Positions 7,823 through 63,716 of a DNA stretch of 64,000 nt are shown here, piece by piece. The stretch's first letter is position 1, and each line of letters starts with the position of its first letter. The stretch comes from Acutalibacteraceae bacterium (GTDB taxonomy: Bacteria; Bacillota; Clostridia; Oscillospirales; CAG-272). The position numbers and the translations under genes were made by a program. The notes below the pieces were generated by a model, which saw only the letters and a list, made by a program, of their open reading frames with translations, had not been told where the DNA came from and searched no databases. The DNA is taken from assembly GCA_963618495.1 (NCBI GenBank), contig CAVESF010000009.1, forward strand, positions 179-64,178, given 5' to 3'.

Positions 7823-10204
7823 ATGAAAAGCTTCGAAAAAGCGATAAAAACGCTTGAATTTGATAAAATACGGGCTATGCTTGCCGAATGTGCGCCGACA
7901 GAGAGCGCACGCGCGGCGGCGCTCGCGCTCATGCCATCGAAAAGCCGCGGTGCCGTTCTCAAGATGCAGGAGGAAACGGAAGCGGCGCACGCGATGCAGG
8001 CCGTGAAAGGTATGCCGCCTTTCTGCTCAGTGACCGATATTTCCGCCGCCATCGACCGCGCGGAAAAGGGCGCAATGCTCACCGTGCGCGAGCTTCTGGA
8101 GGTCTGCCGCGTGCTCACGGCCGCCCGTGCGCTGACGGAATACCGCAACCGCGAGCAGAACGCGCTCGATGATTATTTCGACGCGCTCACGGCAAACAAA
8201 ACTCTCGAAAACAAGATTGCCCGTTCGTTTGACAGCGACGGAAATCTGAACGATACCGCGACGGACAAGCTCTACGATATCCGCCGCAGGATACGCACGG
8301 CACAGAACCGCGTGCGCGACAGCCTGCAGAAGTACATCTCGGGCGAGCACTACTCAAAATATCTTCAGGAGCAGATAATTACCGTGCGAAACGGGCGATT
8401 TGTCATCCCCGTCAAGGCGGAATACAAAAACGAGATAAAAGGTCTCGTGCATGATTCTTCCTCCTCGGGCGCAACGCTCTTCATAGAGCCTGTCGGCGTG
8501 GTGGAGGCAAATAACGAGATACGCATACTCGAACGCGCCGAGGCGGACGAGGTGGAGCGTTATCTCTTCGAACTCTCATCCGACATCGCCGAAAACTCCG
8601 TCATTCTCCGCGGAAATCACCACAGCATAACGACTCTGGCGCTCATTTTTGCCAAGAGCCAGCTTTCTTTCCGCTACTCTGGAATGATGCCGAAAATAAG
8701 CGAAAATAGCATGATTCGCCTGAAAAATGCGCGTCATCCGCTGCTGAATAGCGACGCCTGCGTGCCGATAAGCATTTTCATAGGCGAAGATTTTGATTGC
8801 CTTGTGATAACGGGACCGAATACGGGCGGCAAAACCGTTTCGCTGAAGACAGCGGGACTTTTTGCGCTCATGGCGCAGGCAGGGCTTCAGCTCCCCGTGG
8901 GAAACGACAGCGAAATCGGCATATTTGAGGATATTTTCGCCGATATCGGCGATGAGCAGAGTATAGAGCAGTCGCTCTCGACTTTCTCCTCGCATATGGT
9001 GAATATAGTCTCCATTCTTGAAAGTCTCCGCCCACGCACGCTTGTGCTTTTCGATGAGCTCTGTGCAGGGACAGACCCTGTCGAGGGCGCGGCGCTTGCC
9101 GTTTCAATATTGGAGAGCGTGCGTGCAAAAGGCGCACTCTGCGCCGCAACGACGCACTATGCCGAGCTGAAAATATATGCTCTCGATACCGATGGCGTCT
9201 GCAACGCCTCATGTGAATTTGACATTTCGACCCTGCGCCCGACCTACAAACTCGTGATAGGCGCGCCCGGCAAATCAAATGCCTTTGCCATTTCCGGCAG
9301 GCTCGGACTTCCCGACGATATAATCCGCCGCGCCGAAACTTATGTTTCGGGCGAAAGCAAGCGTTTTGAAAACGCGATAGAGCGACTGGAGCAGAACCGC
9401 GTGGAGATGGAAAAGCGCAATGCCGAAGCGGAAGCGATGCTTGCAGAGGTGAAGCGCAAAAAGGCGGAAGCGGACTCTTTCGTCGAGATGCGCGAAAAGG
9501 AAGCGGAAAAAGAACTGGAAAAAGCCCGCGCCGCGGCTTCGCGCATGATACAGGGCGCAAAAGCCTCGAGCGATTTCATAATGGAGCAGATGGAAAAGGT
9601 GAAAAAGGAGCGCGAAAGCGAAAACCTTGCCCGCAGTATGGAGGAGGCACGCCGCGCCATCCGCCTGAAGCTCCGTGAAAATTCCGATATGGTAGACCCT
9701 GTGGAGGAGCGCATATTTGAGGGATATAAGTTGCCTCGCCCGCTGAAAAAAGGCGATGAGGTTGTGCTCATGAATATCCGCCAGAAAGGCGTACTGCTCG
9801 GCGATCCCGATTCATCGGGAAATGTCATGGTGCAGGCGGGTATCATCAAAACGAAAACAAACATCAGAAATCTCATGCTCATAGACGGCGAAACCGTCAC
9901 ATTCAATGAGAAGCAACAGAAGAAAAAGGCGAGCGGAAGAGATATTTCCACAGTTGCCAATTTCTCCGCCGAGCTTGACCTTCGCGGTCAGTACGGCGAT
10001 GATGCCTGCTTCATGCTCGATAAATATCTCGATGACGCAAAACGCAGCGGCGTGAAAACCGTGCGCATCATTCACGGTAAGGGAACAGGCGCACTCCGCA
10101 AAGCAGTAACGGATTTTCTGCGCAAGGATAAGCGAATCGCAAGCGTCCGCCTCGGAAACTGGGGCGAGGGCGATACGGGCGTTTCCATAGCCGAGCTGAA
10201 ATGA
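7823..10204 (+). CDS. mutS2: Endonuclease MutS2 (MutS domain V ATPase plus C-terminal Smr domain)
   Basis: 793 aa with GPNTGGKTVSLK Walker A, a coiled-coil middle region and a C-terminal Smr (IIHGKGTGALR). Confidence 0.95.
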   Translation: MKSFEKAIKTLEFDKIRAMLAECAPTESARAAALALMPSKSRGAVLKMQEETEAAHAMQAVKGMPPFCSVTDISAAIDRAEKGAMLTVRELLEVCRVLTAARALTEYRNREQNALDDYFDALTANKTLENKIARSFDSDGNLNDTATDKLYDIRRRIRTAQNRVRDSLQKYISGEHYSKYLQEQIITVRNGRFVIPVKAEYKNEIKGLVHDSSSSGATLFIEPVGVVEANNEIRILERAEADEVERYLFELSSDIAENSVILRGNHHSITTLALIFAKSQLSFRYSGMMPKISENSMIRLKNARHPLLNSDACVPISIFIGEDFDCLVITGPNTGGKTVSLKTAGLFALMAQAGLQLPVGNDSEIGIFEDIFADIGDEQSIEQSLSTFSSHMVNIVSILESLRPRTLVLFDELCAGTDPVEGAALAVSILESVRAKGALCAATTHYAELKIYALDTDGVCNASCEFDISTLRPTYKLVIGAPGKSNAFAISGRLGLPDDIIRRAETYVSGESKRFENAIERLEQNRVEMEKRNAEAEAMLAEVKRKKAEADSFVEMREKEAEKELEKARAAASRMIQGAKASSDFIMEQMEKVKKERESENLARSMEEARRAIRLKLRENSDMVDPVEERIFEGYKLPRPLKKGDEVVLMNIRQKGVLLGDPDSSGNVMVQAGIIKTKTNIRNLMLIDGETVTFNEKQQKKKASGRDISTVANFSAELDLRGQYGDDACFMLDKYLDDAKRSGVKTVRIIHGKGTGALRKAVTDFLRKDKRIASVRLGNWGEGDTGVSIAELK

Positions 10205-10257
10205 GCGTGAGTGAACTCCGCTCGCCGCACTCACAGTTTTCTGCACTTTTTATTAAG

Positions 10258-10345
10258 GTTTATTAAAGTTTTCGCCCGCCTTTTTTAAAAGGCGGCGCCA
10301 TCAAAGGCGCGGAGCCTTTGTCGCGCTCCGCAGAGCGCGAAATTA
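10258..10345 (+). repeat. Intergenic repeat locus R1 (triple-hairpin T module only)
   Basis: AAAGTTTTCG, then CGCCCGCCTTTT..AAAAGGCGGCG, AAAGGCGCGGAGCCTTT and CGCGCTCCGCAGAGCGCG. Confidence 0.8.
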
Positions 10346-10457
10346 CTCCGTCTCAGCGGCAACTGCAAGCCGCGCTACACCATAAAATACGGCACGGAAA
10401 CATTCACCGTTTCCGATTAAAAAACGAAAATATTAAATTCTGAAAGGAAATACATAT

Positions 10458-13299: not shown

Positions 13300-13675
13300 C
13301 TCAACGCACTGACCAAAGTTTCGCACACCATAATTAAAGTTTTCGCTCACTTTTATTAAAGTTTCGGTCAAGCCTTTTCAAAGGCTTGACCGAGCCGCCG
13401 GTGTCGGCGGTCGCGCTCCGCAGAGCGCGAAAGCTCTATAACGGCGCTTTTCTTTTTTGTAGCTTTTTCTTTTGCGGCGGCGATGGCAAAAGAAAAAGCG
13501 GATGAAAGATTTGATTTCTTGTTTTGACTGTTGACGGGACTTTGGTTCTCGAGTAGGGCGGCGGCTTGCTGCCGCAGTGTAGAATCATAAAGAAACTTTT
13601 CCTTTTCTCGTACTTTTGTGTGACCAAAAGTACCAAAAGTCATATAAGAGGCGTTCCACCTCTTATATATCTCCC
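13300..13675 (+). repeat. Intergenic repeat locus R2 (iterated TTAAAGTTTCG motif, T module, long H hairpin, X double hairpin)
   Basis: Shares modules with loci R3-R7 on direct comparison. Confidence 0.85.
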
Positions 13676-13677
13676 CC

Positions 13678-13828
13678 CTGTCGCCTCGCGGCGACCAGTG
13701 CGAGCAAAGTGCCCCGACCGTCCCGCCATAGCATAGCCACAGCTACAGGTTCGAAACGCCCCCGCGCCGACTCGGATTCACTGCTGTGCCATGTCAGGCT
13801 ATAGCGAACCTCGCGGTTGATATTTTGG
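13678..13828 (+). repeat. Z module copy 1 (151 nt, candidate structured RNA or hairpin-ended mobile module)
   Basis: Roughly 88-90 percent identical by eye to the reverse complement of 51554-51704. Confidence 0.8.
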
Positions 13829-14034
13829 GTGCTGAAACTGGGAAGTTTGTGCGCTGACGGGACAAAGCATATATTCTGTTTTTCGCAGAAGTTACAGTTT
13901 TAACCCCGCCTCCCTGCAGGGGAATTGACCGTCTCGCGCAAGGAAAAAAGTACTACAAATCATCATTTCCCTATCCACCCTCAAAAACAAAAATATACTT
14001 TCACGATTCCGCAAGGAATCCACAGGTGAATATC

Positions 14035-36040: not shown

Positions 36041-36237
36041 AATAGGCGTTATAGTGCGAGTCGGCAACCGATGGCTGCCGGCTCGCTTCGGTCTGTCGAA
36101 AAACCCTAAATTCAGAAATTAGTTTTGGCGGATGCGTAGAATCGGCAACAAAAGAAAGCCTTCCCTCAAAGGCGCGCAAAAACCTTAATTCAGTATTGAA
36201 AATTTCATCATATGTGCCCAAAACCGACATAAAAAAA

Positions 36238-38565: not shown

Positions 38566-38790
38566 ATGTTTGAAGAAATCAAGACACTGCTCGTAGATGA
38601 ACTCAGCATACCGGCAGAAGAAATCAAGCCGGAATCCGAGCTTATCGGCGATCTCGGCATCAACTCTCTCGAGCTTGCTGACCTCGTCATGCTCTGCGAA
38701 GACAAGTTTGATGTTGAAATAGACGAAGAGGAGCTTCGCAAGTTTATTACGGTAGGCGATGTTGCCGATTATTTTGCAAATCTGAAATAA
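38566..38790 (+). CDS. Acyl/peptidyl carrier protein (PP-binding)
   Basis: 74 aa, acidic. DLGINSLELADLV contains the phosphopantetheine-attachment serine context. AAGGAG RBS. Confidence 0.85.
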   Translation: MFEEIKTLLVDELSIPAEEIKPESELIGDLGINSLELADLVMLCEDKFDVEIDEEELRKFITVGDVADYFANLK

Positions 38791-38898
38791 ACGAGATGCT
38801 AAAAAAGTGCAGACCGAAAAAGTGAAAGGGTGTGTAACTTTTTTGGTAAAAGAGGTTTGTTAAAGCTAAAACTGTTCAGTAATATCGATTTTAAGGAA

Positions 38899-38934
38899 GG
38901 CAGGAAATCCGAGAGAGGTTTTCCTGCCTTTTAT
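38899..38934 (+). terminator. Intrinsic terminator inside repeat copy 1
   Basis: GGCAGGAAA / TTTCCTGCC 9 bp stem followed by TTTTATC. Confidence 0.75.
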
Positions 38935-39143
38935 CATATTCACTTTTTCTCTCGCCGAAATCCTTTTCTGCCGTACAGATGTACGGCGACGAAGCGGATA
39001 TTCAACGATTCTGCGCATTTTTATCTATCTCGTTACACGAGATGCTAAAAAAGTGCAGACCGAAAAAGTGAAAGGTGTGTAACTTTTTTGGTAAAAGAGG
39101 TTTGTTAAAGCTAAAACTGTTCAGTAATATCGATTTTAAGGAA

Positions 39144-39179
39144 GGCAGGAAATCCGAGAGAGGTTTTCCTGCCTTTTAT
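39144..39179 (+). terminator. Identical intrinsic terminator inside repeat copy 2; a mutated version lies in copy 3 at 39389-39424
   Basis: Same hairpin as copy 1. Copy 3 carries C-to-A in the 3' arm. Confidence 0.7.
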
Positions 39180-39544
39180 CATATTCACTTTTTCTCTCGC
39201 CGAAATCCTTTTCTGCCGTACAGATGTACGGCGACGAAGCGGATATTCAACGATTCTGCGCATTTTTATCTATCTCGTTACACGAGATGCTAAAAAAGTG
39301 CAGACCGAAAAAGTGAAAGGTGTGTAACTTTTTTGGTAAAAGAGGTTTGTTAAAGCTAAAACTGTTCAGTAATATCGATTTTAAGGAAGGCAGGAAATCC
39401 GAGAGGGGTTTTCCTGCATTTTATCATATTCACTTTTTCTCTCGTCGAAATCCTTTTCTGCCGTACATTCGCTGTTCCTTTTTCTTGCCGCATCTCATCA
39501 AGCCAAGAGTGCTTTTTTCTTTTCCACAAATATTCAAAAAACCG

Positions 39545-39702: not shown

Positions 39703-41079
39703 TTATTTCAGATAGTCTAAGGGATTTACGCGCGTATATTTGCCGGTTTTGCTGTCATATACGCGTATCTCAAAATGCAGATGTGTGCCCGCATACGGAT
39801 TTGAAGTTGTGGGCGTGGGGCTGACCCTGCCCGTGTTTCCCGATTCTCCTATCACCTCTCCCGCCTGAACATAATCACCGACAGAAACGAATTTTTTACT
39901 CATGTGCGCATAATATGTGCGCATTCCGTTTTCATGCTCTATCACAACAAATGTGCCGTATGTCCAGAGCATACTTTTGTCCGTGATGGGATTGAAAGCG
40001 CCGTTGTTGTATGCCATCACAACTCTGCCGCTCATCGAGGCGACAACGGCTTCTCCATACCATACGCCGATATCAAGTCCGCCATGACCTCCGCTTCCGT
40101 AATTTTGCGTGATGCTGTAATTTCTGCCTATATATTTGCCGCTTGCTTCTCCTGCGACAAGATACGGCAGGCGGAATTTCTCGGGTGTCGGCTTCGGTGT
40201 AGATTCAGGCTCGGGTGTCGGCTCCGGTGTAGGTTCGGGCTCGGGTGTTGGCTCTGGTTCCGGCTCCGGAGCGACATATGTGCCGACGGCGATAACTTCG
40301 TTTACAGGCTCTTCGCGATCCTGCAAAATGAGAGTTTCGCCTGTCTTTTCGCCGCGGTAATATGATATCTCATATGTTTCCTTGAGAATGCCGTTTTTAC
40401 CTGCGGTGACAAGCGTTTCCTCGCCGAGAGGCAGACAGTCGTCGGAAATCCGTTCCGTTCCATAAGGGATATCGCTTGTCCGCACCTCAACTTCCGATGT
40501 ATGCGAAACCTTTGTCCCCATGAGGAGTATTTCGTTTTGCGGATATGCTTGTATGCGCTCGTCTATGTAGTTGCCTATCGTACGTCCCGCACGATAAAGC
40601 AGTGTCGTGGTATAAACCTTTTTTCCGACTATGCCCTCGCGGATAACCTGCGTATCGTCATCATAATGCTCATCGGAATACCGTATTTCCGTTTCATAGG
40701 GGATATCTTCTGTTCTGGTGAAAACATATGATGTCGGCGGTGCTTCGGCTACTGTGGTTGCGGTAGCCGGAGTGGTCGCGGCGGATGTTGTTGTGGCGGA
40801 TGCTGTTGTAGTCGGAGCGGCTACCGTGGCTGTTTCGGTGACTGTCGTTTCGGACGGCATGGCAGTGCTTGTTACAGTCGTTTGTGCGGTTTTTTCTGTC
40901 GTCGCAAGTAAAGACGGTATTGTCGTTTCCGTCGAGGGCGGCGCGGCAGATGGCAGAGAGGAGACTTTGCCGTCGGGCGTCTTATCAGAGGAGCAGACAC
41001 AAATAAGTATCAGCGCGCAAAGCACGGCAAGAATGAAAAGCACGGCGGAAAGCCGCCTTTTGGATAGAGATGATTTCAT
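39703..41079 (-). CDS. Secreted/anchored M23 metallopeptidase with G5 domains and a Pro/Thr/Glu-rich linker
   Basis: C-terminal GGHGGLDI...HLHFEIRV M23 motifs, two G5-like segments (VIREGIVGKKVYT...), a PEPEPEPTPEPEPTPEP linker and an N-terminal TM anchor. The ATG at 41079 is preferred over the track start at 41127. Confidence 0.85.
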   Translation of the reverse strand: MKSSLSKRRLSAVLFILAVLCALILICVCSSDKTPDGKVSSLPSAAPPSTETTIPSLLATTEKTAQTTVTSTAMPSETTVTETATVAAPTTTASATTTSAATTPATATTVAEAPPTSYVFTRTEDIPYETEIRYSDEHYDDDTQVIREGIVGKKVYTTTLLYRAGRTIGNYIDERIQAYPQNEILLMGTKVSHTSEVEVRTSDIPYGTERISDDCLPLGEETLVTAGKNGILKETYEISYYRGEKTGETLILQDREEPVNEVIAVGTYVAPEPEPEPTPEPEPTPEPTPEPESTPKPTPEKFRLPYLVAGEASGKYIGRNYSITQNYGSGGHGGLDIGVWYGEAVVASMSGRVVMAYNNGAFNPITDKSMLWTYGTFVVIEHENGMRTYYAHMSKKFVSVGDYVQAGEVIGESGNTGRVSPTPTTSNPYAGTHLHFEIRVYDSKTGKYTRVNPLDYLK

Positions 41080-41262
41080 GAGAGTATTCCTTTTTACCGT
41101 ATCCCGTGCGGGATGTGATTCTGTCATAATAATACAATAAAAGGCATAGTGAAATCAATGGAAAATATTTTATAATATACATATATAAGGGAAAAGGGCA
41201 TCATTTTTTGCATGAAATGAAGCGCTGTATCCTATATCGGAATAAATTGCCATACGGTGGTT

Positions 41263-42261: not shown

Positions 42262-42470
42262 TGTATGGAAACGCTTCGCATATGTGTTAATCCCCGCTTT
42301 TTCTTTTGCTATCGCCGCCGCAAAAGAAGAAGCTAACAAAAAGAAAACCCCGATATAGAGATTTCGCGCTCTGCGGAGTGCTTACCCTGTCTCGGCGACG
42401 GCTCGCGTCGCCTTTTTAGAAAAATGCGGGCGAAAACTTTATTGGTATTGCGAAAACTTTGATTGGTAGT
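42262..42470 (-). repeat. Intergenic repeat locus R3 (H and T modules, reverse orientation)
   Basis: GCATATGTGTTAAT, then CCGCTTTTTCTTTTGC...GCAAAAGAAGAAGC, TTTCGCGCTCTGCGGAG and GCGAAAACTTT repeated twice. Confidence 0.8.
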
Positions 42471-44826: not shown

Positions 44827-44910
44827 ATGTTTCTCCTTTGATTTTTGCGATAATGTGTTGATTTTGAGCCGGATTAACAAACAGAAAAAGCAAAAAGTAC
44901 ATGCTTTATT

Positions 44911-45470
44911 CCGTCAGCGCACATATCACATTCACGCCCGCCATGCATTTTCAGCGGGCGTGCAGACAATGCGTGCACGAATCTGCTCGGCTATCTCGTG
45001 TGTTATGTTCGCACGCGTGGTATGGCTGAAGCTGCGGAGAATGGCAAAACCGCCGATTTTTGCTTTGTCTGTTTGTCGCACGCACTCGCCACGCATGGCT
45101 TGCGTGACTAACTCGTGCACGCGGGAAGAGTTTGCAAAGAGAGGGGAAAGCTCTCTTTGATGACTTTTGGTACTTTTCGTCACGGAAAAGTACGAGAGAA
45201 GAAAAGTTACTTTATGTTTCTGCGCGGGAGACCACTGGTCTTCCCTGCCATGCAAAATCCAAGTATAGTCAACAGCAAAAATAAAAGACTGAATCCCTCT
45301 CCGCTTTTTCTTTTGACATCGCTGCCGCAAAAGAAAAAGCTATCAAAAAGAAAACGCCGAAATCAGAATTTTGCGCTCTGCGGAGCGCGACAAAGGCTCC
45401 GCGCCTTTGATGACGCCGCCTTTTTCAAAAGGCGTGCGAAAACTTTAATTGCGGGCGTGCGAAAGCAAAA
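44911..45470 (-). repeat. Intergenic repeat locus R4 (Y, X, H and T modules)
   Basis: 44911-45215 matches the reverse complement of 51196-51506. 45290-45465 matches the H+T units of R2, R3 and R7. Confidence 0.85.
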
Positions 45471-50620: not shown

Positions 50621-51184
50621 ATGGCGATAAAAATATTCGTAGACCAGGGACACAATCCCGAAAATCCGAATGCGGGCGCAGAGGGCAACGGCTACAGAGA
50701 GCAGGATCTTGTTTATTATATAGGAGAAGAATTGAATACGCTTTTAAATGAGAATCCGGATTTCGAAGCGATACTCTCACGCAATACGCCCGATGAGATA
50801 CTCGGCATGAGCGTCGCTTCATCGCTTCGCGAGAGGGTAAAAGCCGCAAACGAATGGGGCGCGGATTATTTTATCAGTCTGCATGCGAACGCTTCGGATA
50901 TCCCGACGGCATCGGGCAGTGAGGCTTTTGTTTACAGCAGCGGTTCGGCGGCGCTTCCGCTTGCGGAAAATATTCTCATCGGTCTGCATGACGCAACGGG
51001 ACTGGAAAACCGCGGCGTTTCCGCACGCCCGACGCTGTATGTCCTCCGTGCAACGGATATGCCGGCTACGCTCATAGAGCTTGGTTTTATCACAAATGCC
51101 GGGGATGCCGCACTCATGGCAAATAATCCGCGCCTTTTTGCGCAGGGAGTATATAATGGGATTCTGATGTTTTTCGGGGTGTGA
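50621..51184 (+). CDS. N-acetylmuramoyl-L-alanine amidase (Amidase_3 family)
   Basis: IFVDQGHNPENPNAGAEG...ISLHANA...ELGFITN motifs. The ATG at 50621 follows GGAGG. No signal peptide seen. Confidence 0.85.
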   Translation: MAIKIFVDQGHNPENPNAGAEGNGYREQDLVYYIGEELNTLLNENPDFEAILSRNTPDEILGMSVASSLRERVKAANEWGADYFISLHANASDIPTASGSEAFVYSSGSAALPLAENILIGLHDATGLENRGVSARPTLYVLRATDMPATLIELGFITNAGDAALMANNPRLFAQGVYNGILMFFGV

Positions 51185-51195
51185 GTTTTCTGCGG

Positions 51196-51553
51196 AGAAT
51201 CATAAAGAAACTCTTCTTTTATTGTACTTTTGTATGACCAAAAGTACCAAAAGTCATATAAGAGAGCGTTCCTCTCTCTTATATATCTCTTCCCGCGTGC
51301 ACGAGTTAGTCGCACGAGCCGTGCGTGGCGAGTGCGTGCGACAAGGGGCAAAGCAAAAGTAGGCAGTTTAGCTACTCTCCACAGCTTCAGCCATACCACG
51401 CGTGCGAACATAGCACACGAGGAAGCCGAGCAGATTCGTGCACGCATTGCCTGCACGCCCGCATAATAGGGTTGGCGGGCGTGAATCCACCACCTACGCT
51501 GACGGGACTATCAAAATAAACCCTATCTCGCTATGTTCGCACACAGACACGCA
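51196..51553 (+). repeat. Intergenic repeat locus R5, left part (X double hairpin plus about 245 nt Y module)
   Basis: X matches 13590-13675 in the same orientation. Y matches 44911-45170 in inverted orientation. Confidence 0.85.
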
Positions 51554-51704
51554 CCAAAATCTCAACCGCGAGGTTCGCCATAGCCCGACATGGCACAGCA
51601 GTGAATCCGAGTCGGCGCTTAAGCGTTTCGAACCTGTAGCCGCGGTTATGCCGTAGTTGGACGGTCGGGGCACTTTGTTCGCACTGGTCGCCGCGAGGCG
51701 ACAG
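51554..51704 (-). repeat. Z module copy 2 (inverted relative to copy 1)
   Basis: See 13678-13828. Confidence 0.8.
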
Positions 51705-51860
51705 AAAGAGTTTAAAAGAGGGATTGACACATATGCGGAGCATGTGTGTCGGCGTCGCCGAGACGGGAGTTAATACTTTCCTCTTTTTGTCCTTTTCGTT
51801 CTTTTCGGACAAGCGAAAAGAACATCAAAAGAAAAGTTTCTTTTATGTATTTATGAAAGA
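51705..51860 (+). repeat. Intergenic repeat locus R5, right part (W module)
   Basis: ACACATATGC...GTCGGCGTCGCCGAGAC...GGGAGTTAA is shared with 57630-57680 and 61185-61250. Confidence 0.7.
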
Positions 51861-53966: not shown

Positions 53967-53995
53967 TTGACAAAACCGTATAGTGTGTGTATAAT
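53967..53995 (+). promoter_or_regulatory. Consensus sigma-A promoter of the rplJ-rplL operon
   Basis: TTGACA, 17 nt spacer, TATAAT. Confidence 0.8.
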
Positions 53996-53996
53996 A

Positions 53997-54151
53997 TATA
54001 GGCAATCCGAAGACAGCAGGTTTTTGTAAAAGCTGAGCTATCCTGCCGAGGAGAGATTTATAAAGCGATTTATTGTCTTTCCGTATGCTTCATTGCGGAA
54101 AGATTTTTTATTTTCAAGCTTGGCTTTATTATTACGAAAGGTGGTGTAATT
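53997..54151 (+). promoter_or_regulatory. Ribosomal protein L10 leader (autoregulatory attenuator)
   Basis: About 155 nt of 5' UTR between the promoter and rplJ, containing a terminator hairpin (54076-54114: TCTTTCCG/CGGAAAGA plus T-run). Position and layout match the Firmicute L10 leader. Confidence 0.55.
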
Positions 54152-57589: not shown

Positions 57590-57740
57590 GCAGTCGCATC
57601 TGTTTGCTGTATTGGATGTTTCGGAAGAAGCGGGAGTTAACACATATGCGAAGCGAACGCTGTCGGCGTCGCCGAGACAGTGTAGGGCTTGCTGCCGCCG
57701 GATAGAAGCATAAAGAATCTTTTCTCCTTTGGCGTGCTTT
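57590..57740 (+). repeat. Intergenic repeat locus R6 (W-type module plus the CATAAAGAA junction)
   Basis: GCGGGAGTTAACACATATGCG...GTCGGCGTCGCCGAGACAG...GCTTGCTGCCGCC...CATAAAGAA. Confidence 0.7.
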
Positions 57741-57760: not shown

Positions 57761-57790
57761 CAAAAAAGAACCCTTGCGGGTTCTTTTTTG
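57761..57790. terminator. Bidirectional terminator hairpin AAGAACCC-TTGC-GGGTTCTT
   Basis: A-run and T-run flank an 8 bp stem. Lies between convergent genes. Confidence 0.8.
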
Positions 57791-57795
57791 TGCTT

Positions 57796-58023
57796 TCAGA
57801 GCCTGAAAATATCATCGTATGATACTCGCAGAATATTTTTTATCAGAATTATCTCATCGGGGTAGAGATGCCGCTGTCCCACTTCGATTTTTGCCACGGC
57901 ACTTCGGGTGATGTCACAGCCGCGGAGCTGCAGCTGTGCGGCGAGAATCTCTTGCGTCATACCTATGTTTTCACGCAATGAGCGAATGTTATTTCCGATC
58001 TTTTTTTCTATATTCCGATCCAT
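57796..58023 (-). CDS. XRE-family HTH transcriptional regulator
   Basis: 75 aa from the ATG at 58023, with IGNNIRSLRENIGMTQEILAAQL HTH_3. Confidence 0.8.
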   Translation of the reverse strand: MDRNIEKKIGNNIRSLRENIGMTQEILAAQLQLRGCDITRSAVAKIEVGQRHLYPDEIILIKNILRVSYDDIFRL

Positions 58024-58060
58024 CTTATCACCGTTCCGTTTTATTTTTTTAAAAAAGGTA

Positions 58061-58089
58061 TTGACAATAGTATACTTGTGTGATATACT
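58061..58089 (+). promoter_or_regulatory. Promoter of the small lipoprotein gene, with a palindromic operator candidate at 58095-58112
   Basis: TTGACA, 17 nt spacer, TGA-TATACT. Followed by TGCACTTATATAGGTGCA, an imperfect palindrome at about +1. Confidence 0.6.
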
Positions 58090-58149
58090 GTTTTTGCACT
58101 TATATAGGTGCAAATCAAACATATTAAAATTACAAAAGGAGAAACAGTT

Positions 58150-58572: not shown

Positions 58573-58600
58573 CAAAAAAGAACCCGTGCGGGTTCTTTTC
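58573..58600. terminator. Second copy of the AAGAACCC-GTGC-GGGTTCTT hairpin
   Basis: Nearly identical to 57761-57790, with a single loop-base difference within the hairpin. Confidence 0.75.
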
Positions 58601-61169: not shown

Positions 61170-61385
61170 ACCCATGATCCGCATATGTGTTAATTCCCCT
61201 GTCTCGGCGACGCCAACACACATGCTTTGCATATGTGTTAATTCCCGCTTTTTCTTTTGCTGATGCCGCCGCAAAAAGAAAAGCCGATTGGGAGATTTCG
61301 CCCTCTGCGGAGCGCCACAAAGGCTCAGCGCCTTTGAATGCGGCACCTTTTGAAAAAGGTGCACGAAAACTTTAATGCGTCGGGA
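61170..61385 (-). repeat. Intergenic repeat locus R7 (W, H and T modules)
   Basis: GCATATGTGTTAATTCCC occurs twice, followed by the H hairpin and the triple-hairpin T module ending in CGAAAACTTTAAT. Confidence 0.8.
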
Positions 61386-63642: not shown

Positions 63643-63687
63643 ACAAACGAATAAGATGGGCTGGTCTCCGGACCCGGGTCCACCTGC

Positions 63688-63716
63688 GGCGGGGATGTTC
63701 CCCGCCATTTTTATTT
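63688..63716 (+). terminator. Terminator-like hairpin inside the DUF3800 5' leader
   Basis: GGCGGGG ATGTT CCCCGCC followed by ATTTTTATTT, ending a few nt before the AAAGGAG RBS. Confidence 0.6.

Follow-up and report, generated by a model that had tools for sequence, protein, structure and literature searches.

Repetitive extragenic palindromes and bacterial interspersed mosaic elements (REP/BIME) of Enterobacteria and Pseudomonas are GC-rich hairpins located outside genes. They are present in many copies per genome without a gene of their own, are common at gene 3' ends and between convergent genes, and combine with other short motifs into mosaics that vary by locus. The BOX elements of Streptococcus pneumoniae (boxA-boxB-boxC), bcr1 of Bacillus cereus, ERIC, and Correia are likewise small, modular, structured, and non-coding intergenic repeats. 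Some of them occur in Firmicutes, their module number is variable, and co-transcription with neighboring genes has been proposed. A repeat family that is very probably of this REP/BIME- or BOX-like kind, chromosomal, enzyme-less, non-coding, and unrelated in sequence to the described elements, was found in a 64,000-nt stretch of the genome of an Acutalibacteraceae bacterium (GenBank assembly GCA_963618495.1, contig CAVESF010000009.1, positions 179 to 64,178), which is called the window here. Its modules (T, H, X-Y, Z, and W) are joined into mosaic strings. A preliminary description, made from the letters of the window, had listed the loci at which such modules recur. All of these loci were recovered when the window was compared with itself, and the hairpins quoted for them are present in the sequence as written.

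The core of the family is T, an 84-nt module that consists of a head (AAAGTTTTCG), three consecutive hairpins, and the tail GCGAAA. The window contains five T copies and one relic. The pattern AAAGTTTTCG-N40-70-CTCCGCAGAGNGCNAAA matched the window five times and gave no match in 100 shuffles, and a covariance model built from related copies recovered the five copies at 49-99 bits. The degenerate relative that had been placed at about 36045-36215 is a weak match to the same model and is best described as a decayed T (Table 1). T occurs singly and always 5' of H, and of the five window copies four are followed by H; pairs of T in inverted orientation are rare (L075, L082). Nearly every T is succeeded by further modules, and the upstream flanks of different T loci are unrelated to each other.

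Is T a peculiarity of the window? The preliminary description had allowed for that outcome. Instead, the exact T pattern was found in at least 117 stretches from ~70 assemblies of a one-genome-per-species collection (assemblies were counted by accession prefix). The carriers belong to several families of Eubacteriales, and many genomes are represented by several contigs. Among the named carriers are Negativibacillus massiliensis, Angelakisella, Butyricicoccus, Acutalibacteraceae, Candidatus Scatomorpha, Candidatus Merdivicinus, Clostridium sp. CAG:169, and Eubacterium sp. CAG:180. The family is new, and it is unusual in having an 84-nt core of three hairpins that is present across families together with a triplex-like module.

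The pairing of T stems is kept by compensatory change in ~70 species of gut Clostridia. Evidence for this comes from two alignments, one of 115 distinct T copies made with MAFFT and one of 139 copies aligned to the covariance model. In the MAFFT alignment, the unpaired motifs (AAAGTTTTCG, the loop CGCA, and GCGAAA) were invariant, while the stems were variable yet always complementary. Among the 139 copies, 98.5% of stem cells held standard pairs, compared with 79.6% when partners were shuffled and 19-57% when the partner column was slid; this percentage is somewhat inflated because the copies were fitted to the model structure, and the independent MAFFT alignment agrees with it. Changes on both sides of a pair were found at 18 of 20 T pairs. 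All four Watson-Crick types occur within single columns (for example GC 62, CG 38, AU 17, and UA 12). The compensatory stem changes pointed out earlier therefore hold on the larger sample, with strong covariation in both alignments, and so does the earlier view that selection acts on structure. Covariation of this sort is the kind of support usually required for a new class of structured RNA.

Which strand folds? Read in the T sense, the stems contain 35 G·T and 4 A·C appositions (binomial p = 3e-7). Equal numbers of the two would be expected under neutral decay or in a symmetric cruciform. Because they are so unequal, what folds is the T-sense strand on its own, as RNA or as single-stranded DNA, and not a symmetric cruciform. 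The cruciform that the preliminary description had offered as one option is thus disfavored.

The same numbers bear on the proposal that the modules are debris, that is, decaying and functionless remains of recombination or of an extinct element whose covariation derives from a few old master copies with perfect stems. T copies do cluster into subfamilies, relics exist (36121-36189), and orthologous sites are highly plastic with junctions at microhomologies. However, neutral decay does not predict the excess of G·T over A·C, nearly all stem cells are paired despite many stem differences, and the unpaired motifs have remained invariant in species of several families. We regard this proposal as very unlikely.

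A further signal comes from gene context. The median distance from the nearest upstream gene to the start of T is 90 nt. Where that gene lies within 150 nt, it is codirectional with T in 45 of 61 cases (p = 0.0003), and in the window in all five. The G·T asymmetry and the direction of the upstream gene are two independent signals, and they indicate the same strand. T copies are enriched between convergent genes and under-represented in divergent-gene spacers (8 of 77), and their orientation has no relation to local GC skew (50 vs 51). A sense terminator-like site lies within 110 nt upstream of 17 out of 124 T copies, as against 8% of random windows. Because such sites are few, most T copies should be co-transcribed with the upstream gene. 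The modules may work as RNA, since the folded strand matches the direction of the upstream gene, mostly no terminator intervenes, and no effect of the replication strand is seen. T does not itself have the layout of an intrinsic terminator (a GC-rich hairpin followed by a U tract), as no T run follows any of its three hairpins.

The module that follows T has a different architecture. H consists of a pyrimidine tract (A), a turn of 3-5 nt, a pyrimidine arm (B), a loop, and a purine arm. It had been described as a 14-bp hairpin. That hairpin is present, but the pyrimidine tract upstream of it had been overlooked, and in one window copy (61247-61284) one arm is lost and the register is shifted by one base. 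In 17 distinct combinations of A, B, and purine arm, B and the purine arm are reverse complements and A is the mirror of B, which makes A complementary to the purine arm in parallel orientation. The mirror is exact in seven asymmetric variants (5T-C-4T, 5T-C-3T, 4T-C-T-C-3T, 6T-C-3T, 4T-C-3T, 5T-C-2T, and 4T-C-T-C-2T), most others are a mirror with one extra base, and in none is A a direct copy of B. The three tracts change together. A role of tract A as an alternative Watson-Crick partner of the purine arm was rejected, as this would need a direct copy and A is a mirror and in no variant a direct copy.

Hoogsteen pairing (T·A-T, C+·G-C) requires a mirror copy, and because A is one, H has the layout of an intramolecular triple helix. 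The order of the chain (A, turn, B, loop, purine arm) sets A parallel to the purine strand, so that A is placed as the third strand of a pyrimidine-motif triple helix would be, parallel to and complementary with the purine strand. H thus looks as if it is built like a triple helix, with symmetry suggesting that one would form. With its three-way covariation, H offers a concrete candidate for a long nucleic-acid triplex in bacteria, and one that can be tested.

The closest comparison for H is the stability triplex of MALAT1, which contains ~9 U·A-U and 1-2 C+·G-C triples (PMC7583470), a composition that H resembles. Bacterial RNA triple helices catalogued to date are short and are located in riboswitch pseudoknots and group II introns (PMC7583470). 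As in the element for nuclear expression (ENE) of MALAT1 and PAN, two U-rich strands and one A-rich strand are combined, the A strand running parallel to one U strand and antiparallel to the other. Unlike the ENE, whose hosts are eukaryotic or viral, H is found in bacteria and is known here from sequence; it is also a simple fold-back and not a U-rich internal loop that clamps a 3' tail. The most far-reaching form of this comparison, in which T-H is an RNA cassette of bacteria with a MALAT1/ENE-like triplex of 9-11 triples at its end, joined to many unrelated mRNAs of gut Clostridia at their 3' ends and guarding these mRNAs from decay, seems rather improbable. If true, it would be the first long RNA triple helix of the stability type in bacteria, and one carried by a spreading repeat family.

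Mirror repeats such as tracts A and B are also the classic motif of H-DNA, and this brings in the possibility that the modules act as double-stranded DNA. In that case they would be protein-binding palindromes, cruciforms, or H-DNA mirror repeats that organize the chromosome or buffer supercoiling between genes. The enrichment between convergent genes and a short perfect palindrome within W are consistent with such a role. But a cruciform or dimeric site is strand-symmetric, at odds with the G·T excess; protein sites should conserve sequence and not covary; and H-DNA needs no purine copy on the same strand, yet in H that copy covaries. A double-stranded role is therefore very doubtful, with as little probability as the debris proposal.

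Some observations concern the junction of T and H. Of 42 distinct T-to-H junctions, 11 have a weak hairpin in the linker (CGAAA ... UUUCG) that lies directly against tract A. The CGAAA conserved at the 3' end of T has two possible partners. Pairing with UUUCG of the 5' head would close T as a three-way junction, and pairing with a UUUCG located 5-9 nt downstream would give a small hairpin abutting the U-rich tract A, so that a pair of alternative structures is possible. Examples of the linker are present in the window (45356-45372, minus strand) and in L007, L014, L023, L053, L108, and L127. Small extra hairpins, often tipped with GCGAAGC, are found inside T hairpin 1 (L033, L116) or inside arm B of H (L063, L093, L016, L091, L051). 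This suggests that another tiny module targets these elements.

How would the strings work? The explanation that best fits the observations as a whole, which we hold with slightly less than even confidence, is a mosaic repeat family whose strings are read as structured 3' untranslated RNA. The RNA mechanism taken by itself is more doubtful. Module strings would be transcribed in the T sense and form the upstream gene's 3' untranslated tail. The stacked hairpins together with the H structure, which as RNA would be a hairpin with a third strand in its groove (9-11 U·A-U / C+·G-C triples), would form a barrier to 3'-to-5' exonucleases. The strings may also buffer neighboring transcription units, and selection on the RNA would keep the stems intact. 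The terminator or insulator role that the preliminary description had suggested is likewise conjectural. Spread and shuffling would occur by recombination at short shared motifs, namely the iterated head AAAGTTTTCG and T-rich tracts, or alternatively through an enzyme encoded elsewhere in the genome.

Several points weigh against this explanation. The co-orientation of T with the upstream gene is 73%, short of 100%. Each T of the window sits behind a terminator-like hairpin of the upstream gene, which would limit read-through there, and a scan of the locus-4 spacer revealed no promoter-like site. G·T makes up ~1.4% of T stem pairs (35 in about 2,560), which is low for a typical structured RNA and suits single-stranded DNA at least equally. 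The triplex is read from sequence symmetry, and a purine-type DNA triplex could form on the complementary strand, so that H is compatible with both RNA and DNA. Finally, both polymorphisms examined between strains are rearrangement or deletion junctions and not clean pairs of filled and empty sites.

The main rival takes the single strand to be DNA. According to it, the modules are non-autonomous mobile elements moved by an enzyme encoded once elsewhere in the genome, for which an HUH-type enzyme such as a REP-associated tyrosine transposase (RAYT) or an IS200/IS605 TnpA is a candidate; this enzyme recognizes the T hairpins and the head, and stem conservation reflects a requirement for copying and not a host function. 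Strand-specific pairing with few wobbles would suit DNA hairpins. The invariant unpaired motifs resemble a recognition or cleavage site, the copy number is high (five in 64 kb), and GCGAAGC-type hairpin tips, which are very stable in DNA, recur. Window copies also resemble the non-autonomous derivatives of IS200/IS605 (palindrome-associated transposable elements) in being hairpin-rich, in functioning on one strand, and in having neither inverted ends nor a clear target duplication. Unlike those derivatives, they have no identified target tetranucleotide and no TnpA or TnpB nearby, and no enzyme of the kind required is encoded in the window or near the 117 listed T copies. IS200/IS605 insertions follow the replication strand, whereas T is independent of GC skew and tracks the upstream gene. 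No clean insertion with defined ends was found, and REP-type elements are usually confined to one species or genus whereas T spans families. Mobilization as single-stranded DNA is accordingly unlikely, if the strongest of the alternatives. Should the units work in this way, they would imply a mobilizing enzyme encoded elsewhere; should they work as RNA, they would constitute a general device for stabilizing 3' ends.

Strong conservation of structure, invariant loops, and a strand-specific fold would equally be expected of a small RNA. T or T-H could be an independent gene family with its own promoter that acts as a trans regulator or a protein sponge, and some small RNA families are likewise multicopy. 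The negative promoter scan of the locus-4 spacer speaks against this, as do the unrelated upstream flanks, the lack of a terminator at a fixed distance, and the further modules that nearly always follow T. Moreover, about one T copy per 13 kb is too dense; we know of no small RNA family that comes near this density. An independent small RNA is the least probable of the readings considered.

In related strains, corresponding sites carry differing module strings. The spacers next to birA and between jag and mnmE were compared in metagenome contigs whose MnmE is 93-95% identical to that of the window. Downstream of birA, the flanks are fixed and the content is not. The window carries W-H-T there (186 nt). 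A single X-Y (~316 nt) occupies the site in three strains, three X-Y-type units and a Z body in one, and T-H with one or two X-Y units behind it in two. Two or three tandem heads with a period of ~21 nt are kept on the birA side in all strains at this site. Because the X-Y units start directly after the head, the head is a junction motif common to different modules. In the jag-mnmE spacer, some strains lack T and tract A and have a hybrid arm B, and one has an inverted X-Y.

The spacer between rhaA and a rhamnosidase gene ranges from 374 to 1,223 nt with differing strings among conspecific strains (rhamnulokinase 95% identical). T is present there in the window strain only; in the other strains, H directly adjoins the rhaA terminator at its U tract, whose sequence is that of tract A. 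Both this spacer and jag-mnmE differ by deletions at short T-rich repeats. Between mutS2 and rhaB, the window has 253 nt, as against 36 nt in ten strains; the terminator-like hairpin and degenerate head at 10203-10261 are missing from strains with the 36-nt spacer. Positions 10352-10420 of the window are a gene remnant, the last ~70 nt of a 305-aa hypothetical gene that is intact upstream of rhaB in L144, L146, and L150. Because the window segment ends in this remnant, it is a rearrangement junction and no clean insertion, with T copy 1 at the junction. In L018, synteny is lost exactly at the element. No unambiguous pair of filled and empty sites was found in the window species at mutS2-rhaB, jag-mnmE, or rhaA-rhamnosidase. 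Module strings turn over rapidly by rearrangement at short shared motifs. Metagenome contigs of the window species often end inside X-Y or H (L118, L119, L121, L123, L140).

Are the modules mobile elements of a known type? The preliminary description had suggested a MITE (a miniature transposable element with inverted repeats) or a REP/BIME-like mosaic. The second part stands, in that the modules are short imperfect palindromes outside genes that are combined into mosaics. They differ from REP/BIME in sequence, in the three different hairpins of T where a REP is a palindrome of 20-40 nt, and in the lack of a conserved GTAG-type 5' tetranucleotide. T is single and without the inverted pairs or alternating orientation of REP/BIME, and no RAYT gene was present in 8-kb blocks around the T matches. 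BOX, bcr1, ERIC, and Correia differ in host group and sequence, and to our knowledge no mirror-repeat, triplex-capable unit has been reported for any of them.

The first part, a classical MITE with inverted ends and target duplication, is unsupported for the window copies. Window units have unlike ends, no target-site duplication was found at locus 1, and none of fixed length in the window species; in contrast, bcr1 and Correia possess inverted ends as well as target duplications. At locus 1, a hairpin lies close to either end of a 218-nt segment that shows no duplication and whose right part is the gene remnant. Locus 2 is flanked on both sides by TTTCTTTTTTG, a tract that also belongs to H and to the rhaA terminator. 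In the metagenome-assembled genome SRP225648_co1_490 (L021, L025, L047, L056, L067, L079, L111), T-H lies within a ~250-nt unit with 11-nt TGTAGACAAAA inverted ends, and in L067 and L111 the same 30-37-nt terminator hairpin is present on both sides of this unit, which would be an unusually long duplication. Some relatives with TGTAGACAAAA inverted ends may thus qualify as MITEs.

Neither an element-encoded enzyme nor a phage or plasmid is involved. When 1,454 open reading frames (ORFs) near the 117 listed T copies were clustered, only spurious repeat ORFs and housekeeping genes were obtained, with no recurrent transposase within 2.5 kb. The housekeeping neighbors include two-component systems, dnaX, ABC transporters, mfd, and aminotransferases. 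Pfam scans of 40 window proteins found no integrase or reverse transcriptase and, as the preliminary description had also noted, no transposase. The T pattern had no match in 2.9 million viral contigs; an 18-mer from Y had three, which were taken as chance. A 581-nt composite of locus 4 (T, H, X, Y) matched no plasmid or phage record by BLAST. Flanks of a known insertion sequence or prophage, raised at the outset as a trivial source of the modules, thus do not account for them. Integron attC sites were also considered, but T shows no R''/R' cores (RYYYAAC ... GTTRRRY), no integrase is present, and the neighbors are housekeeping genes.

The family likewise has no name. At gathering scores, Rfam 15 found only tRNA-Thr, an L10 leader, and a DUF3800-XI motif in the window, all outside the repeat loci; with the threshold relaxed to E up to 5, the sole match within a module, to a microRNA model at 13451-13511, was due to chance. 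Queries of the literature by sequence string and topic found nothing on the family, in line with the earlier impression that it was not a named one. Group II introns, hammerhead and twister ribozymes, tRNA-like structures, and HEARO-like RNA were ruled out for lack of an Rfam or ARAGORN match. The idea that the modules are paralogous 5' leaders shared by related genes was dropped, as the genes downstream of them are not related.

One unit of the family starts with X, a leader and two hairpins that are followed by Y or Z. The preliminary description had counted Y and Z as separate modules. Both are present, but they are distant homologues and serve as alternative bodies of one X-led unit of ~330 nt. 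In 17 X-Y copies from the window and relatives, two hairpins show compensatory changes (for example G-C to C-G atop hairpin 1), a 9-bp hairpin is invariant, and an invariant 13-bp long-range helix (GCGTGCACGAGTT with GATTCGTGCACGC) encloses ~130 variable nt. The two strands of X-Y fold about equally (-74.9 vs -79.3 kcal/mol; 12 copies, too small a sample to choose between them). Relatives carry tandem X-Y arrays (L108, L122). At locus 2, Z is 89% complementary to 51554-51704, and its end motif matches 44898-44923. W is a short unit of two palindromic parts.

Gut Oscillospiraceae, Acutalibacteraceae, and related families are abundant, known mostly from metagenome assemblies, and almost unannotated in their non-coding DNA. 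The family may occupy a noticeable share of their intergenic space. It fragments short-read assemblies and marks sites at which close strains differ by hundreds of bases.

The layout of the seven window loci is given in Table 1. Every module copy is intergenic according to the ORF map and the Pfam scans, as had been proposed, and the long mechanical ORFs that cross repeat loci differ between copies. The window is ordinary chromosomal DNA. The genes scanned in it are housekeeping genes (recO, era, phoH, mutS2, rhamnose genes, priA, fmt, yidC-jag-mnmE, and birA), and a contig of Candidatus Apopatosoma intestinale UBA11495 matches 6.3 kb of it at 91.7% identity. No record was found with the exact sequence of its RhaA protein.

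Table 1. Repeat loci and module copies of the window; locus strings are written along the T-sense strand
Feature	Position	Strand	Basis
Terminator-like hairpin GTGAGTG...CACTCAC with T-rich tail, 3' of mutS2, then degenerate head (ATTAAGGTTT)	10203..10261	+	read from sequence
Locus 1: T	10262-10344		window self-comparison
T copy 1 (head AAAGTTTTCG, three hairpins, GCGAAA)	10262..10345	+	covariance model 99.5 bits; exact pattern
W-like fragment, then 3'-end remnant of 305-aa gene	10346..10421	+	90% identical to L144:1052-1122
Locus 2: heads-T-H-X-Z-end	13333-13873		window self-comparison
Iterated heads, truncated T 5' ends (AAAGTTTCGCACACC, then ATTAAAGTTTTCGCTCAC)	13316..13354	+	self-comparison family D14
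T copy 2, hairpins 1 and 2 of differing sequence	13355..13435	+	covariance model 67.9 bits
H (A, turn, B, loop, purine arm)	13446..13499	+	sequence
X: leader GAATCATAAAGAAACTTTTC and two hairpins	13563..13675	+	self-comparison families D7, D8
Z body (13676-13830) and shared end motif (13848-13873)	13676..13880	+	pairs I1, I24
Decayed T relic	36121..36189	-	covariance model E = 0.02; head and hairpin 1 discernible by eye
Locus 3: heads-T-H-W	42267-42460		window self-comparison
W fragment (GCATATGTGTTAA motif)	42267..42303	-	self-comparison families D3, D12; pair I16
H (A, turn, B, loop, purine arm)	42296..42348	-	sequence
T copy 3 (42359-42443) and extra head (42444-42462)	42359..42462	-	covariance model 49.2 bits
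Locus 4: T-H-X-Y-end	44898-45449		window self-comparison
X-Y unit: X ~45140-45239, Y 44930-45139, end motif 44898-44923	44898..45239	-	83-84% identical to 51185-51505
H (A = TTTTCTTTTT, B = TTTTTCTTTT, purine arm = AAAAGAAAAA)	45303..45355	-	sequence
T copy 4, 86 nt past jag stop codon, same direction as jag	45366..45449	-	covariance model 90.4 bits
Locus 5: X-Y-(Z inverted)-W	51178-51767		window self-comparison
X-Y unit	51178..51510	+	self-comparison, alignment
Z body, inverted relative to copy at 13678-13828	51554..51704	-	pair I1
W module	51714..51767	+	self-comparison pairs I9, I21
Locus 6: W and X leader	57624-57724		window self-comparison
W module (57624-57680) and X leader fragment (57686-57724)	57624..57724	+	self-comparison family D7; pairs I16, I18
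Locus 7: T-H(variant)-W-W	61170-61376		window self-comparison
Two W copies	61170..61254	-	self-comparison family D12; pairs I9, I18, I21
H variant without arm B; purine arm paired straight with tract A, register shifted by one base	61247..61284	-	sequence
T copy 5, after terminator of cysteine-desulfurase-like gene	61293..61376	-	covariance model 82.1 bits

Other repetitive or structured features of the window were also noted. A 245-nt unit is repeated in 2.8 tandem copies of 99% identity at 38791-39467, between a 74-aa ORF resembling acyl carrier protein (38566-38790) and the tRNA-Thr promoter (39586); the unit matches no Rfam family and contains no convincing ORF. A near-identical 27-nt hairpin flanked by A and T runs (CAAAAAAGAACCCTTGCGGGTTCTTTT) occurs at 57761-57787 and 58573-58599, on either side of a small helix-turn-helix gene (57796-58122), and the pair resembles a duplicated two-way terminator. 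Besides tRNA-Thr, the Rfam features of the window are the DUF3800-XI motif at 63657-63703 (53.8 bits) and the L10 leader at 53989-54118 (65 bits). Three 30-nt tandem repeats at 40180-40269 lie within a G5/M23 peptidase gene (39703-41127, minus strand) and probably encode a repetitive linker.

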